From a bacterium (GTDB lineage: Bacteria > Patescibacteriota > Microgenomatia > UBA1400 > PJMF01), in NCBI GenBank assembly GCA_017431625.1, contig JAFRKQ010000031.1, forward strand, positions 1 to 52,770: 52,770 nt of DNA, in the 5' to 3' direction. The notes below the pieces were generated by a model that saw nothing but the letters and a program-made list of their open reading frames with translations, was not told the DNA's origin and made no database searches. Position numbers and translations under genes: made by a program. Positions within the stretch are counted from its first letter, which is position 1; every line of letters begins with the position of its first letter. Positions 5,642-44,417 of the stretch are shown piece after piece.

Positions 5642-6757
5642 TTAATTAAGCCGAGTGATGCGGGCAGCACCATGGCCAATTTTGGCACAATCAGCAGTAG
5701 GCACTTCTTGCGCACAAGTATTACTAATAGTGAGCGTGGCGCTGTCAGTTGACTCCGGACATTCATGACAAGTCATATGTTTAGTGACATCACCAAGACT
5801 AATAAGATTGGACGAGCCAATATACCCAGAGCCGCCACCACCGGAAGTATAAGCCGAGCCACCCCCACCATACCAACCACCACCGCCACCAGCGCCGTCT
5901 TCAGAAATAGGATAGCCATTGCCTCCTTGACCAAAGACACCTGATGGTTGACCAGCATTAGTGCAAGCATGCGGATTACCGGTCACCCCACCGGCCGTCT
6001 GGCTACCACCGATAGCACCGCATTCAGGTCTACCGGTCACAATCGGCGATACCCCCTGATAGCCACCACCGCTGGCACCGTAGCTAACATAAGAGATACC
6101 ATTGCCGGCGCCACCACCAGCAACAACAAGAATTTCCCGAGAAATATTCAAGCCAGCAGTATCTTTATATGCAGACAAAGTACTTAAAACTCCGGGTACA
6201 GTCGCGATGTGAGTCGCCCCACCACCAGAGCCTTCTTTTCTGGTTTTGTTTAAACTTGGAAAAGTATTGCCCCGACCATATGCCGCTCCACCACCATTGT
6301 AAGTAATCGGAGCAAAAAACTCGCTGCCAGGGATATTGCCGCCAACACCAATGCCAGCCTCACCCACTACTACCCAAAAAGCACTACTGTTCTCTGGCAC
6401 AAACACACCAGTAGCATAACCGCCATAGCCACCCCGACCAGCGCTACCAGGACCTCCCTGTGCACCCCACACCTCCAACTGATAAGTGCTCCCGGCGCAA
6501 GTGAAAAATTTTTGCTGGCCACCTGTATACTCAAATGTCTTGCTCTCGCCAATCTCTAACTCATCGCAGGCTGGTCGCATTGCTATGTACTGATTGGTAC
6601 CCACCTTCACAAACTGAAACTCCCCCAATTGGACGATTTTGCCAACCGGCACATCTTTAGGTTTCATGGTTTTATTGCCAGAAGCCGCTTGACTGACTGT
6701 CACCATCAGGATAAGAAAAATTGCCAGCAAAAAGATCCGCCCAAATACTCTGGACAT
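5642..6757 (-). CDS. Secreted glycine-rich domain protein (cassette A)
   Basis: Signal peptide; shared AASGNKT..FVKVGTNQY module; LEVWGAQGG, GGGATHIA, LVVAGGGAG, GGGGGWYGGG, GHGAARIT motifs; SD GAAAGG. Confidence 0.9.
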   Translation of the reverse strand: MSRVFGRIFLLAIFLILMVTVSQAASGNKTMKPKDVPVGKIVQLGEFQFVKVGTNQYIAMRPACDELEIGESKTFEYTGGQQKFFTCAGSTYQLEVWGAQGGPGSAGRGGYGGYATGVFVPENSSAFWVVVGEAGIGVGGNIPGSEFFAPITYNGGGAAYGRGNTFPSLNKTRKEGSGGGATHIATVPGVLSTLSAYKDTAGLNISREILVVAGGGAGNGISYVSYGASGGGYQGVSPIVTGRPECGAIGGSQTAGGVTGNPHACTNAGQPSGVFGQGGNGYPISEDGAGGGGGWYGGGGSAYTSGGGGSGYIGSSNLISLGDVTKHMTCHECPESTDSATLTISNTCAQEVPTADCAKIGHGAARITRLN

Positions 6758-7052
6758 GGTTTCCTTTCGTCTTGTCTATGTATTCCGGGTTGGTCGCCTC
6801 CACTTTTAGTAGCTACTAAAAGTGGGCGATACAAGAACTGTCGTTCTCCCGGTGACCTAACTAATACACAGAGGTAGAAAGGAAAAATTATGCACTAGAA
6901 CCGGGTAAAGTATCTCCCACTTTATCGCGTGCACAATTCCAAAGCTTCTTCATCTCTGCTCCGTTGTCCAAGGACTCAGCAACAACCAACTTGTCATTCA
7001 TCCTCAAAATTTCACTCAGACTCCTTTCTCTACTCCTGTATAAGTTAGGTCA
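6758..7052 (-). ncRNA. Putative structured 5' leader RNA of cassette A (~295 nt)
   Basis: ~31-nt imperfect inverted repeat 6853-6883 / 7022-7052 starting 6 nt after TATAAT (7059-7064); perfect 26-bp palindrome at 6800-6825; further hairpins. Confidence 0.6.
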
Positions 7053-7092
7053 ACAATCATTATATCATGGTTTTCACTTTTTGAGAAAGCAC

Positions 7093-7208
7093 TTTTACCG
7101 CATTTTTTGCGCGAATAATTGGTAATCACTTGTACGCCTCCTGGACTCACAAGATAAAATTACACCTATCAATCAAGATATTTTTGTACGCCTTTGAGGC
7201 TCACAAAA
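7093..7208. repeat. Dispersed repeat family 2, full 116-bp copy
   Basis: Aligns without gaps to 18864-18979; ends in TTTTGTACGCCTTTGAGGCTCACAAAA. Confidence 0.85.
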
Positions 7209-7211
7209 GAC

Positions 7212-8579
7212 TCACCCCACCAGCGTGCCGGCGGGTACACGCGCGTCCACCTCAAAACGTTGGGGCGCCGCTCCTGGCACTTCCACGGCCAAAATCATCC
7301 CCTCACTGACACTCTCGCCCATCTTGCGCGGCGGAATATTGGTGACGTAGACCAAATTCTTGCCGGTGAAGTCCTCTGGCGTATACCAGGCGCGCAGCGC
7401 CGAACAAATCGTGCGCGTACCCAAGGGACCAAAGTCAATCGTCTGGACAATGAGTTTATTGCTCCACGCCGGCGCTTCAGCCTTGAGCACGTGACCCACT
7501 CGCAGCTCCAGCTTGAGAAAATCATCAAAACTCACCACCGGACGCGCCTCGCCCAACATCCTTTCGGGCGAGACAAAATCCGCGCTCAGCCCCAAGGCCG
7601 CTTTGGCTTTGGCTACGGTCATATTGGCGACCAGCCGTGCCCGCGCCGCGCCATCATTCAGGATTTTTTGCACCTCCAGCGGATGCGCTTGCAAATACGC
7701 ATACCGCTCCCGGATCGGGGCAAAAAACTTCTGATGCGCCGCCAGCAGCTTTTGTTTGACCTCCACGTCGCCCACCGTGCCCGCCTGATAGCGCGCTTTC
7801 AAAGCCTCCACTTCATCCTTGTCGTCATTCCACAGCTGGTGATAAAGAAAAATTGGGTTGCCCTCCACATGCCCGGGATCAGTCGCCTTTTGGCGTGTGG
7901 GATCAGTATAGCAGCTCATGATTTGCTTTTCAATGATTTTATAGTCGTCAAAAATCCCAATGATATTGCCCAAAGACTTACTCATTTTGCGCTCGCCATC
8001 AGTGCCAATAATTTTGCCAATACTTTTGTCAATCAGCGGTTGTGGCAGTTTAAAAACTTTTTTTCCAGTTTTTTTATTAAAATTCTCTGCGATGTCACGG
8101 GCTATTTCCAAATGTTGCTTTTGGTCTACCCCCACTGGCACTCCGTCAGCATTGTAAGCCAAAATGTCCGCTGCCATCAAAATCGGATAATTAAAAAGCC
8201 CCATGTTAATATTGTCGGTGTCCACGCCTTTTTCCAATTTGTCTTTGTAAGCGTGCATGCGCTTCATCTGTCCCAAACCCACAAAATTGGTCAAGATTGT
8301 CTCTAGCTCACAATGAGCCGACACCTGTGATTGACGAAAAAAAACGAAATTGTCGCCCTCAATCCCACAAGCCAAATACTGCAACACTACATTTTGGATA
8401 TTGTGAGCCAGTACCTTGGCGTCTTGGATCGTCGTGAGCGCGTGTAAATCCGAAACAAAACAATAAACCTGCACTTCTGCTTGTCCTTGCTGCACCAGTG
8501 GCCGCAGCGCCCCAAAATAATTACCAATGTGTAAGTTGTCACCGCTAGGCGTCACGCCCGTCAAAATCGTCTTGCTCAT
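7212..8579 (-). CDS. trpS: Tryptophanyl-tRNA synthetase with C-terminal OB-fold tRNA-binding domain
   Basis: TGVTPSG, HIGN, YPILMAADIL, PVGVDQKQH, KMSKS; C-terminal FDDFLKLELRVG...NIPPRKMG..SEGMILA. Confidence 0.95.
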   Translation of the reverse strand: MSKTILTGVTPSGDNLHIGNYFGALRPLVQQGQAEVQVYCFVSDLHALTTIQDAKVLAHNIQNVVLQYLACGIEGDNFVFFRQSQVSAHCELETILTNFVGLGQMKRMHAYKDKLEKGVDTDNINMGLFNYPILMAADILAYNADGVPVGVDQKQHLEIARDIAENFNKKTGKKVFKLPQPLIDKSIGKIIGTDGERKMSKSLGNIIGIFDDYKIIEKQIMSCYTDPTRQKATDPGHVEGNPIFLYHQLWNDDKDEVEALKARYQAGTVGDVEVKQKLLAAHQKFFAPIRERYAYLQAHPLEVQKILNDGAARARLVANMTVAKAKAALGLSADFVSPERMLGEARPVVSFDDFLKLELRVGHVLKAEAPAWSNKLIVQTIDFGPLGTRTICSALRAWYTPEDFTGKNLVYVTNIPPRKMGESVSEGMILAVEVPGAAPQRFEVDARVPAGTLVG

Positions 8580-17512: not shown

Positions 17513-18643
17513 TTAAATCCCCAAATAAACTGATAGTTGGGTAATCCGGGCAGCCCCATTACCAATTTTGGCACAATCAGCTATTGGAGTTTCGCTAGCA
17601 CAAGTGTTGGAAAATGTTAAAGTGGCACTACCAGTTGATTCTAGGCAATCATAACAGGTCATATGTTTGGAAAAATTCACAAGACTCAACAAGGCGGAAT
17701 TGCCTATATAACCAGAGCCGCCGCCACATGCACCTGACCAAGATGTGCCTCCGCCACCATACCAACCGCCGCCACCTCCGCAGCCGTAATCGCCGATGCT
17801 CTGAGAATATGCACCCCCTCCAAGTCCAAAGTCAGCCGCTGGATTATTGATCATTGTGTATGAACTATTACCAGATTTATTAGTTCCAGCGCTGGTCTGC
17901 GTGCCACCACTAGTACCAACACTAGCATTACTGTATTCATTTTTATGATAGCTGCTGCCAGCTGTACCTTGAACACCACCACCATTACCAGCATCGCCAC
18001 CCCACTCAATACCACCGCCACCACCGGCAACAATTAGAACCTCAGATTGATAGTTTTCATAATTGGCTAAGACTCCCCGACTGGTAACCGCAATATGAGT
18101 CGCCCCGCCTCCATTGGCAATAGCAGTTGTACTACTACCTCTACCGGCACCATTGCCCCCACCATTGTAACCATATGAATAATTACTAGTGCTAGTACGA
18201 CTGCCACCCACTTGGAGATATAGTTTCTCAGAAGACAGCAAGTTAGTCACTCCAATACCATAGCCACCCTTGCCACCACAATTGGTAGTTGTCGGTTTCA
18301 TCCAACCCATGCCATATCCCTGCGCACCCCAAACTTCCAATACATAATACCCGTCCGCTGGCGCCGTAAAAGTCTGCACATTGCCAGTGTAAGCAAAATC
18401 TGTAGTCTGGACCACACACCCCTTGTAAAAACTGGAGTAAGTACTCCCCTGTGGGCACAGACTGGTAGCCACCAATTGATTGCTAGCGGTTTTGACAAAA
18501 CTAACCCCACCAATTTTAACTACTTGACCGGTGGTGAGCTCATTGAGTTTTTTGGTCTTATTGCCAGTGGCGGCGTTAATTGATTGCCCTACCATGAGGA
18601 GAAAAATTGCCGCCAAAATGATCTGCCCACCACGTCTGGACAT
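17513..18643 (-). CDS. Secreted glycine-rich domain protein (cassette B)
   Basis: Paralog of 5642..6757: AATGNKT..FVK..NQ module, LEVWGAQG, GGGATHIA, KHMTC..C.EST.SATLT.SNTCA.E.P.ADCAKIG.GAARIT; SD GAAAGG before ATG 18643. Confidence 0.9.
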   Translation of the reverse strand: MSRRGGQIILAAIFLLMVGQSINAATGNKTKKLNELTTGQVVKIGGVSFVKTASNQLVATSLCPQGSTYSSFYKGCVVQTTDFAYTGNVQTFTAPADGYYVLEVWGAQGYGMGWMKPTTTNCGGKGGYGIGVTNLLSSEKLYLQVGGSRTSTSNYSYGYNGGGNGAGRGSSTTAIANGGGATHIAVTSRGVLANYENYQSEVLIVAGGGGGIEWGGDAGNGGGVQGTAGSSYHKNEYSNASVGTSGGTQTSAGTNKSGNSSYTMINNPAADFGLGGGAYSQSIGDYGCGGGGGWYGGGGTSWSGACGGGSGYIGNSALLSLVNFSKHMTCYDCLESTGSATLTFSNTCASETPIADCAKIGNGAARITQLSVYLGI

Positions 18644-18823
18644 ATTGCCTTTCGTTTTGTTTGTCTGTCTGCGGGCTTTTTCTCGATCCACGAGAGCGTC
18701 CCCGGCTTCACGCTGAGTCTAAGGGGAAACAGTAATGAAATTATACGAGAACACTCTCACCAGCATTACTGTACCACATTGTACTGCATTTCCCAGGCAG
18801 CGCTGTAAGTCCCCTTAGACTCA
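18644..18823 (-). ncRNA. Putative structured 5' leader RNA of cassette B (~180 nt)
   Basis: Perfect 14-bp inverted repeat 18714-18727 / 18810-18823 starting 6 nt after TATAAT (18830-18835); nested stem 18729-18737 / 18764-18772. Confidence 0.6.
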
Positions 18824-18863
18824 CTGATAATTATACCACAAGAAAGTCTTTATCAGCGAGCAG

Positions 18864-18979
18864 TTTTACCGCAATTTTTGCGTGAATAATTGACGGTTGT
18901 TTGTACGCCTTTTGTACGCACAAGATAAAATAACAGCCATACACCAAAATATTTTTGTACGCCTTTGAGGCTCACAAAA
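18864..18979. repeat. Dispersed repeat family 2, full 116-bp copy
   Basis: Ungapped homolog of 7093-7208. Confidence 0.85.
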
Positions 18980-19023
18980 ATATTATCCTCACACACCAAG
19001 ATTTTTTAGCAATATGTCTAGTA

Positions 19024-42966: not shown

Positions 42967-43088
42967 CACTACTTTTTGGCACGAGTTTTTTGGTGAAAAC
43001 ACTACTTTTTGGTAGGAGTTTTTTGAGTAAAACACTACTTTTCCATAGGAGTTTTTTGACAAAAATGCATCAAATTGGTAGAAATTTT
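42967..43088. repeat. 33-bp tandem array (~4 units), right flank of the AAA ATPase gene
   Basis: Units at 42967, 43000, 43033, 43066; same orientation as the left array. Confidence 0.9.
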
Positions 43089-43190
43089 AATAATGGGTGT
43101 AATTATATTGATAGATACAGGTTTTTAATATTTGTTTACTTGTAGAAAAACTCCTACTTGCAGCTGGCAAAAATGTGGTATAATAGACAA

Positions 43191-43439
43191 CGAAACCAAC
43201 AATAATTAGTTGCAGAAGGGAGAAGCTGAGAGATAAGGATGAAGTTGCCAAACCAATAAAAACATAGTTTAGATGGGAATCGAATGCAAAAAGAAGCGGG
43301 GGACGCAATTTGGCTCTTAGCAAAGCATTTGATTTAGGTAGCCTTATAGGCTTCTCTTCAGACTAGTTTTGTTGGTTTCGGGTCAGAAAGTCGCCCGTTT
43401 CTTTTTGCCTCAAACCGCTTGCAACCACAGAAAGGTGCT
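43191..43439 (+). ncRNA. Putative structured 5' leader RNA of cassette C (~250 nt)
   Basis: Arms 43191-43238 / 43342-43380 pair with G-U wobbles and start 6 nt after TATAAT (43179-43184); second pairing ~43287-43303 with 43392-43409. Confidence 0.6.
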
Positions 43440-44417
43440 ATGACGAACTGGTCACGATGGCTTATCTTTTTGGTAATGCTAACAACATATGTCTCTCCCA
43501 TCTGCATGAAAATAGGCGCGCACAGTGTCATCCACGCTGCCAAGGGCAACACATCCATGAAGCTCAAAGATGTGGCGCTGGGCAAAGTGGTACAGGTGGG
43601 AGAACTCAAATTCGTCAAGGTAGGAGATAATCAATATTTGGCCACCAATACATGTCCGCCTGGAAAAATGCTCGCTCCATTAGCTCACGATTGTGTAACG
43701 ATTCAGGAGTATGGTTGTAGCCAGCCAATTGGTACCATGCAAACTTGGAATGGTTGTACTAGCGCGAGTACACCAACAGGCACTAATTATTCCCTAGATA
43801 TCTGTCTAATGGATGAGCGCGACGGCAAGACTTATCAAGTGCGCAAATTTGCCGATGGTCATTGCTGGATGGTAACTAATTTAGCCTATGGACCTGGGTG
43901 TCAAAAAACCTCATTTAATAAAAGCAATGTAAGTCAAGTAGATGTAGTTGGCCCTGGACTTTATGGTGAATGTCGTTGGGATGAAACCAAGTCACTCAGC
44001 CTTACCTATAAATATGGCTATATGTACAATTGGCAAGCGCTGATACAAGATCCTCAAGCTTATTATGGTAATAATTATCAGCCATCAGAACCAGTACAAG
44101 GCATTTGCCCACATGGCTGGCATGTACCGCGAGGCAATACTAACAGCGAATATAAAGCTTTATATGAAGCTATTGGTCAACAAATATCATTCTTCTCTAC
44201 CGGTGGCAATTTTTTAATCGCTTTAGCCGGTCAAATTAGAGACACTAATGGGAACATTATAAGTCAAGACGCAAATGTTCAATTGTTCACTTCTACTCAG
44301 GGCAGTGGTAATAAAACCAATGCTGCTTATTATTGGTGGTTGCCACAAAGAAATTATGAATACTTAGACGATGGTAAATATTTTGGCGGTGCCCTGCGTT
44401 GTATTCAGGATTATTAA
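43440..44417 (+). CDS. Secreted FISUMP (Fib_succ_major) domain protein (cassette C)
   Basis: Shared AAKGN..FVKVGDNQY module; DERDGKTY, CWMVTNL, YGYMYNW, GICPHGWHVP, ALRCI; SD GAAAGG. Confidence 0.88.
   Translation: MTNWSRWLIFLVMLTTYVSPICMKIGAHSVIHAAKGNTSMKLKDVALGKVVQVGELKFVKVGDNQYLATNTCPPGKMLAPLAHDCVTIQEYGCSQPIGTMQTWNGCTSASTPTGTNYSLDICLMDERDGKTYQVRKFADGHCWMVTNLAYGPGCQKTSFNKSNVSQVDVVGPGLYGECRWDETKSLSLTYKYGYMYNWQALIQDPQAYYGNNYQPSEPVQGICPHGWHVPRGNTNSEYKALYEAIGQQISFFSTGGNFLIALAGQIRDTNGNIISQDANVQLFTSTQGSGNKTNAAYYWWLPQRNYEYLDDGKYFGGALRCIQDY

Follow-up and report, generated by a model that had tools for sequence, protein, structure and literature searches.

A new family of structured 5′ leaders, with a predicted pseudoknot, on secreted-protein genes of a Saccharibacteria genus

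Three secreted-protein genes and their leaders

The DNA analysed here (hereafter the window, 52,770 nucleotides) is contig C2 of a 1.14-Mb genome (32 contigs, 96% complete, 45% GC) whose proteins have their closest named relatives in annotated Candidatus Saccharibacteria. The host is a small gut bacterium of the Saccharibacteria/CPR, and the family of PF12810 secreted proteins to which the genes described below belong is restricted to its genus. Three cassettes in the window (A, B and C) each consist of a promoter, a long structured leader and a gene of this family, and a signal peptide (MSRVFGRIFLAAIFLL-like) is common to the three proteins, as is an N-terminal module (AASGNKTMKLKDV...). Each leader contains a closing helix, P1, and a second long-range helix that joins an interior loop to the tail and is labelled here as a pseudoknot, in keeping with the reading favoured below. 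The parts are as follows:

Cassette A
5642..6757, minus strand: gene A, secreted, with a PF12810 glycine-rich domain, 371 aa
6758..7053, minus: leader A (class 1), running from the predicted +1 up to the last base ahead of the ATG, about 296 nt
7059..7087, minus: promoter TTCTCA-17-TATAAT with TG (extended −10), from consensus scan and sequence
7021..7052, minus: P1 5′ arm, with the SD-like box GAAAGGAG at its top (alignment A2, columns 2-33)
6853..6884, minus: P1 3′ arm, containing a CCUUUC anti-SD mimic (A2, columns 179-211)
6888..7001, minus: uORF of 37 codons, MNDKLVV...PGSSA*, its stop abutting the P1 3′ arm
6885..6939, minus: inner hairpin Hx, 6939-6929 with 6895-6885, its loop holding the pseudoknot 5′ strands (helix 6: 11 pairs, 4 compensatory)
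6912..6923, minus: pseudoknot 5′ strand AAAGUGGGAGAU (helix 7: 12 bp, 3 compensatory, 96.7% paired)
6819..6830, minus: pseudoknot 3′ strand AUCGCCCACUUU, in the tail
6763..6768, minus: Shine-Dalgarno (SD) sequence of the main gene, GAAAGG, complementary to the 16S 3′ end CCUCCUUUCU

Cassette B
17513..18643, minus: gene B, a PF12810 paralog of 376 aa, counted from the ATG at 18643
18644..18824, minus: leader B (class 3)
18810..18823, minus: P1 5′ arm
18714..18727, minus: P1 3′ arm (11 of 12 P1 pairs with compensatory change)
18752..18758, minus: pseudoknot 5′ strand GAGAGUG
18692..18698, minus: pseudoknot 3′ strand CGCUCUC

Cassette C
43440..44417, plus: gene C, a secreted paralog that shares the N-terminal module and carries a Fib_succ_major domain
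43190..43439, plus: leader C (class 4)
43193..43239, plus: P1 5′ arm, in three helical segments (alignment A4, columns 4-50)
43342..43379, plus: P1 3′ arm (A4, columns 164-204)
43277..43335, plus: inner hairpin Hx, 43277-43287 with 43325-43335 (helix 5: 11 pairs, 5 compensatory)
43288..43304, plus: pseudoknot 5′ strand AAAAAGAAGCGGGGGAC
43390..43406, plus: pseudoknot 3′ strand GUCGCCCGUUUCUUUUU (helix 6: 17 bp, 4 compensatory, 94% paired)

Promoters place the leaders at the predicted transcript 5′ end

All three cassettes have an extended −10 box of the form TGnTATAAT (hexamers at 7064-7059, 18835-18830 and 43179-43184), the type that also precedes tRNA and other stable-RNA genes, and a consensus promoter scan returned a −35/−10 pair for A and none for B or C. 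From this promoter motif alone we infer where transcription of the leaders starts. An initial annotation of the window had reported that the 5′ arm of a long inverted repeat begins at a fixed offset from TATAAT, and it does so at the seventh nucleotide after the hexamer in each cassette (7052, 18823, 43191). In every leader examined, across all classes, P1 begins 6-9 nt after the extended −10 box and at most about 3 nt from the predicted 5′ end of the transcript.

The same annotation had set these leaders against a background of mostly leaderless genes, which was an overstatement: by a crude count over 733 long ORFs, 267 have a −10-like box 4-9 nt before their start and 473 have an SD. We also scanned 1068 extended −10-like sites genome-wide for a long-range duplex proximal to the start, and the other top matches that were inspected proved to be tRNAs, stable-RNA-like loci or coding DNA, indicating that the leaders are specific to this gene family.

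Five classes of leader in one genus

Leaders of 171-299 nt are carried by 13 of the 15 paralogs with the N-terminal module in the window's genome. A congener (G003) has 26 paralog matches, from which 24 upstream regions were taken; one is cut by a contig end, and 22 of the 23 usable regions hold the same kind of leader. A third genome of the genus contributes one leader (L085), which brings the total to 36 leaders in three genomes. Of these leaders, 35 fall into five sequence classes: class 1 (n=5, including A), class 2 (n=9), class 3 (n=7, including B), class 4 (n=5, including C) and class 5 (n=9). L085 lies outside all five, its interior-tail duplex being significant (z −3.2) and its P1 unsupported (z 0.0).

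A DNA search with leader A found only its own genus (3 of 41 genomes, including the window's own). The protein family was matched in 5 of 61 genomes of the taxonomic family, with the small secreted paralogs only in the congener; in other genera PF12810 domains are parts of giant proteins, upstream of which nothing comparable was seen. A 20-nt pattern of the class-1 core gave eight matches in metagenome_contigs, all unrelated on reading, and three in genome_contigs, two of them with a class-1 leader and one unrelated, and protein-guided locus searches of both collections confirmed no locus. Among the genomes searched, the leader family is thus confined to one genus.

At gathering threshold, Rfam recognises only six tRNAs in the window and no leader family, and a search of 11 paralog loci against Rfam 15 (E ≤ 5) returned only four chance miRNA-type matches, with E-values of 1.5-3. 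No description of such leaders was found in the openly accessible literature. The leaders are members of one new RNA family with five sequence classes, although the kind to which they belong, the structured 5′ leader, is already known.

A closing helix and a loop-to-tail helix, both covarying

The long inverted-repeat arms that the initial annotation had pointed out do pair: 7052-7021 with 6884-6853 in A, 18823-18810 with 18727-18714 in B, and 43193-43239 with 43342-43379 in C. One modelled topology accommodates all classes, in which P1 starts at about +1 and is followed by inner hairpins, a loop-to-tail pseudoknot, an A-rich linker and the SD GAAAGG. P1 is about 14-35 bp long overall, and the predicted pseudoknot, of 12-20 bp, joins the loop of the last inner hairpin to the tail just after P1. 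The second structured domain that had been proposed to precede the SD is present, but it consists largely of the pseudoknot 3′ strand, paired with the first domain. The claim that architecture is kept while sequence differs has stood up in every class: P1 sequences are unrelated between members and yet paired, and P1 drifts around inner cores of conserved sequence. The motif said to be common to A and C, CTGAG..AGGATGAA, is correct as well, with TGAG in all five class-1 leaders and CTGAG in four of the five of class 4.

Compared with dinucleotide shuffles, the folds have z-scores of −5.83 (A), −2.32 (B) and −2.36 (C). When the first 45 nt were tested for a duplex with the rest of the leader, z was −2.7 or lower in 28/28 leaders of classes 1, 2, 4 and 5. 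This test is unsuitable for the short class-3 leaders, to which a separate interior-tail test was applied: a GAGAGC/GCUCUC core lies in the best interior-tail duplex of all seven, with z from −0.7 to −3.6. The consensus structures and their long-range (loop-to-tail) helices are as follows:

Class 1 (alignment A2): 65 pairs, 94.4% of cells paired, 25 compensatory, 0/500 shuffles as high; long-range helix 12 bp + 5 bp, 3 + 1 compensatory, 96.7% and 100% of cells paired
Class 2 (A5): 49 pairs, 94.8% of cells paired, 26 compensatory, 0/500 shuffles as high; long-range helix 15 bp, 5 compensatory, 99.3% of cells paired
Class 3 (A3, RNAalifold): 29 pairs, 22 compensatory
Class 4 (A4): 68 pairs, 92.9% of cells paired, 25 compensatory, 0/500 shuffles as high; long-range helix 17 bp, 4 compensatory, 94% of cells paired
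Class 5: long-range helix 13 bp + 7 bp, 5 + 1 compensatory, 100% and 96.8% of cells paired

Covariation, which had been put forward as the check on the fold, is found in both P1 and the pseudoknot; in four classes none of 500 shuffles scored as high, a control that ignores relatedness and is applied to 5-9 related sequences per class from two genomes. In class 1 alone, 16 of 27 P1 pairs show compensatory change. When partners were slid out of register, pairing fell to 32-54% in the four alignments so tested. The 5-bp long-range piece of class 1 has a second possible partner downstream.

These observations favour an RNA fold over a DNA site, as had been proposed: in 35/36 leaders the sense strand folds more stably than the antisense strand, with a mean difference of −13 kcal/mol. 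G-U pairs also outnumber A-C mismatches (183 vs 23 of 1594 cells), a count that is biased toward the RNA reading because the structures were predicted on that same strand. Long inverted repeats around a segment of about 150 bp beside a promoter could instead mark a DNA-level element, whether an invertible or recombining segment or a MITE. We consider this extremely improbable, given that the arms differ between copies and carry G-U pairs, and given the strand preference just described. Contigs of four DNA runs, which can miss rare forms, show no inversion joints over 6300-7400, and, with the promoter situated outside the repeat, inverting the segment would not turn it on or off.

The dimensions of P1 bear on another possibility, that the leader is an RNase III processing module, in which P1 is cut to release a discrete RNA of about 150-200 nt and a processed mRNA, with the pseudoknot perhaps holding the pieces together. 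At 23-35 bp, P1 is long enough for RNase III in classes 1, 2, 4 and 5, the RNase III gene (rnc) is present in the genome, and a helix whose length is kept while its sequence is free is what a duplex-specific reader would be expected to select. However, P1 has just 12-16 bp in class 3 and is broken by internal loops and bulges, and we rate this explanation as improbable.

A static pseudoknot or a switch

Because its strands cross those of P1, the long-range helix must be a pseudoknot or else belong to a state alternative to P1. In class 1, the state with P1 is 14-24 kcal/mol more stable than the state with the pseudoknot only, and that the pseudoknot covaries nonetheless makes its coexistence with P1 most likely. 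In class 5, local tail hairpins that would compete with the pseudoknot were considered and rejected, as they show no covariation (358/500 shuffles as high), a result that favours a static fold. On these models, a static pseudoknot formed alongside P1 is the favoured interpretation of the loop-to-tail helix.

The same data bear on whether the leader is a regulatory switch that senses a ligand, a protein or the ribosome traffic on the uORF, and sets the translation or decay of its paralog by moving between the P1 state and the interior-tail helix. Loop-to-tail helices are typical of riboswitch platforms, and in these leaders the inner cores keep their sequence and P1 is free to drift; moreover, the two nested states are isoenergetic in three of the four class-4 leaders tested, and in classes 2 and 4 the interior-tail helix lies between an A-run and a U-run, in a terminator-like arrangement. 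The strong preference of class 1 for P1 and the lack of covariation in the class-5 alternative hairpins count against it. So does the absence from the genome of a detectable gene for CsrA, which had been entertained as the reader of the GGA-rich boxes and was discarded on these grounds. With the evidence from the start region and the uORFs given below, we regard a switch as possible but rather unlikely.

The start region is moderately open

A purine box of the GAAAGGAG type, at roughly +22 to +32, tops the P1 5′ arm in 28/28 leaders of classes 1, 2, 4 and 5 (by reading). It is absent in class 3, and elsewhere the nearest AUG is 17-25 nt downstream in most leaders. The box is complementary to the 16S 3′ end GGAUCACCUCCUUUCU, so that its partner in the P1 3′ arm mimics an anti-SD. 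In the consensus fold the box is paired with this arm, and it would hence lack the accessibility of a STAB-SD.

The start region itself has a mean unpaired probability of 0.48, as against 0.36 for the rest of the leader, and is the more open of the two in 29/35 leaders; it is best described as moderately open. The tail helix stops 35-60 nt short of the SD and masks neither it nor a terminator, and a scan of leaders A, B and C for intrinsic terminators found none. That the leaders are without a terminator is a further point against a switch. Sequestration of the SD by the conserved U-run of the signal-peptide region was tried as a mechanism and rejected: such duplexes exist, but pairing of the SD with the coding region is at chance level (mean z 0.06; 2/35 below −1.64), which also speaks against a switch acting on translation.

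uORFs are kept open in three classes

Each leader loop had been noted to contain a short uORF, possibly due to chance. Only part of this holds: the uORF of A is kept in frame in 5/5 class-1 leaders, but MQYNVVQ in B and MKLPNQ in C are not conserved, and within the window a long uORF is present in A only, C having a 6-codon remnant and B none. Nor can chance be the general explanation, as uORFs are non-random in three classes. All but one of the 19 leaders of classes 1, 4 and 5 have an ORF of 28-48 codons that begins with an ATG at nt 36-71, whereas per-sequence shuffles attain 27 codons with a probability of 0.05-0.19; these uORFs have no in-frame stops, compared to 57 and 44 in the other two frames. 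In most leaders of the three classes, the uORF stop is found where the P1 3′ arm begins. Leaders of classes 2 and 3 lack a consistent uORF (1/16 with an ORF).

What these frames are for is less apparent from their content. The reading frame varies among class-4 members and among class-5 members, and dN/dS over the 22 conserved class-1 uORF codons is 0.16-1.11, as against 0.15-0.39 for the main gene, a stretch too short to decide. A stop-free frame that nevertheless varies, with dN/dS values of this range, suggests that the open frame is selected and the peptide hardly constrained. We regard the uORF peptides as very improbable as a functional product that would make each cassette a two-gene operon. 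The near-universal ORF of classes 1, 4 and 5, its freedom from stops, and the indels between the conserved ATG and the core of class 1 (multiples of three in 5/5 leaders) would all agree with such an operon; the shifting frame, the lack of peptide similarity between classes, the absence of uORFs from classes 2 and 3 and the lack of an SD at proper spacing for most uORFs do not. For the switch, the uORFs cut both ways: the uORF encompasses the pseudoknot 5′ strand and its stop adjoins the P1 3′ arm, but classes 2 and 3 have no consistent uORF.

A possible protective 5′ module

We tentatively favour, by analogy, a reading in which the leader, a 5′ domain acting in cis, keeps the end of the transcript out of reach of RNase J-type decay and is thereby protective and expression-promoting. 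P1 would bury the 5′ end and the tail would be tied back, blocking both 5′-end-dependent decay by RNase J and the entry of RNase Y, and surface proteins made in abundance would be translated from mRNAs with long lives. Ribosome loading on the leader, a known second determinant of 5′ stabilisers in bacteria with RNases J and Y, may be added by the SD-like box GAAAGGAG in P1 and, in three classes, by the uORF of about 35 codons. The genome encodes RNase J (TIGR00649, 401.8 bits) and RNase Y (TIGR03319, 526.1 bits), both above cut-off, in addition to RNase III. In bacteria with RNases J and Y, whole mRNAs are stabilised by leaders that cover the 5′ end, have a strong SD or do both (PMC3997798), and in the S-layer gene slpA, which encodes an abundant surface protein, stem-loops of the 5′ UTR stabilise the mRNA and expose the RBS (PMC10221546). 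It is the presence of RNases J and Y, together with these known stabilising and S-layer leaders, that leads us to view the P1-pseudoknot domain as a protective module.

Conservation of the inner cores, the length of the pseudoknot and the presence of a uORF point to a more specific role than protection of the 5′ end, for which a short hairpin would be enough, and this complexity keeps the switch, the RNase III module and the uORF peptides alive as rivals to the protective module. Further points against the protective module are the modelled pairing of the SD-like box in P1, the moderate openness of the start region and the isoenergetic states of three class-4 leaders. One further proposal combines several of these elements: P1-pseudoknot leaders may be paralog-specific post-transcriptional gates, unlocked by uORF ribosomes, RNase III or some other factor. 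Although we hold this to be doubtful, it would mean that the cell picks which of its 13-26 surface-protein paralogs are made, and that ultra-small epibiotic bacteria possess an RNA-level system of surface variation or host adaptation, built on a new class of large pseudoknotted RNAs.

Comparison with known systems

Taken by analogy, the leaders could well work most like 5′ stabilisers and S-layer leaders while being members of no described RNA family, a placement we offer with some reserve. With 5′ stabilisers (B. subtilis aprE and ermC, the B. thuringiensis cryIIIA STAB-SD, the E. coli ompA hairpin), they share a structure at the 5′ end of the transcript, here predicted, an SD-like box matching the 16S 3′ end, ribosome loading on the leader, here proposed, a strong main SD, and a setting with RNases J and Y. 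Unlike these stabilisers, the leaders described here are 170-300 nt long, combine a closing helix of 14-35 bp with a pseudoknot of 12-20 bp, come in five classes on 13-22 paralogs per genome, and have their SD-like box paired. Lactobacillus slpA resembles them in having a strong promoter and a structured 5′ UTR on a gene for a secreted surface protein, abundant in the case of slpA (PMC10221546). There is no homology in sequence or structure, and the present leaders sit on a multigene family and have a pseudoknot and a uORF.

Other systems resemble the leaders in single respects. In ZTP and cobalamin riboswitches a loop reaches the 3′ tail by a pseudoknot or kissing loop, so that, as here, the loop of a folded domain pairs with the tail toward the start site; unlike them, the leaders match no Rfam aptamer, their platform overlaps neither terminator nor SD, and no conserved core of the ligand type was recognised. 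Leader-peptide attenuators (ermC/trp) differ in that no terminator or SD-hiding hairpin is found here and the alternative hairpins of class 5 show no covariation. The tests that define attenuators and riboswitches came out negative for the leaders because neither a terminator nor the SD is involved.

Flavivirus xrRNAs, which are resistant to exonucleases, combine a helix at the 5′ end with a multi-way junction and with pairing between a hairpin loop and the 3′ tail. The leaders are like them in topology, and in a proposed role that would be to block a 5′-to-3′ exonuclease, but they are 3-4 times larger, have far longer helices and belong to a bacterial mRNA leader rather than a viral 3′ UTR; the likeness is one of topology only and does not extend to the ring fold of xrRNAs. 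The rnc and pnp leaders and phage early RNAs are processed by RNase III and likewise present a long imperfect duplex of distant segments at the mRNA 5′ end, in contrast to which the class-3 duplexes are short.

We know of no described regulatory RNAs in CPR/Patescibacteria. The openly accessible full-text literature yielded nothing relevant on this subject, and a 2024 review mentions riboswitches just as future tools. In a group with tiny genomes, about 3 kb of a 1.14-Mb genome are spent on 13 large, covarying, pseudoknotted leaders of one secreted-protein family, whose proteins are probably located where the cell meets its host bacterium. Structural work gains from the leaders a new and well-defined RNA fold, and they provide a handle on how the output of surface proteins is controlled or boosted. 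Because covariation is rich among paralogs, the fold can be tested without cultivation; should the leaders prove to be potent stabilisers, they would make useful expression parts for the emerging genetics of Saccharibacteria.

Mosaic cassettes and neighbouring elements

Leader class and protein subfamily are shuffled relative to each other, and the cassettes are mosaics. Leader A (6758-7053) is 89% identical to the leader at G000:C17:98951-99252 (C17a), while the proteins that follow are 39% identical; A and B have upstream DNA in common and leaders of different classes. Modules seem to have been swapped by recombination at the conserved signal-peptide region. In this region, 29 of the 36 genes listed, from different paralogs and species, encode the Phe-Leu of the signal peptide by TTT TTG, within a fixed motif C-TTTTTG-G. 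The motif lies at these positions in the window, and the same codons recur in other paralogs:

6728-6735, minus: cassette A
18614-18621, minus: cassette B
43467-43474, plus: cassette C

Such fixation across paralogs and species indicates a constraint at the nucleotide level or gene conversion. A small hairpin is predicted across codons 1-9 in most G000 paralogs, and over the same codons a weak terminator-like hairpin with a U-run is found in gene A (6738-6756, minus) and gene B (18624-18642, minus).

Several further elements lie upstream of the promoters. About 70 nt of DNA upstream of the A and B promoters (7130-7200 and 18920-18990, both minus; TTTGTGAGCCTCAAAGGCGTACAAAAATAT...) are repeated at at least 10 other sites in the genome. 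A palindromic box, CGCAAAAA(A)TGCG, is situated some 30-50 nt upstream of the −10 in A (7098-7113, minus) and B (18869-18884, minus), as well as upstream of two more paralogs (C17 and C1), and could be a transcription-factor site. Cassette C has, ahead of its promoter, three direct repeats of about 33 nt (CACTACTTTTTGG.A.GAGTTTTTTG....AAA; 42968-43066, plus). Outside the window, at G000:C11:81500-81714 (minus), a structured RNA of about 200 nt directly follows a TGGTATAAT box and is itself followed by a tRNA gene.
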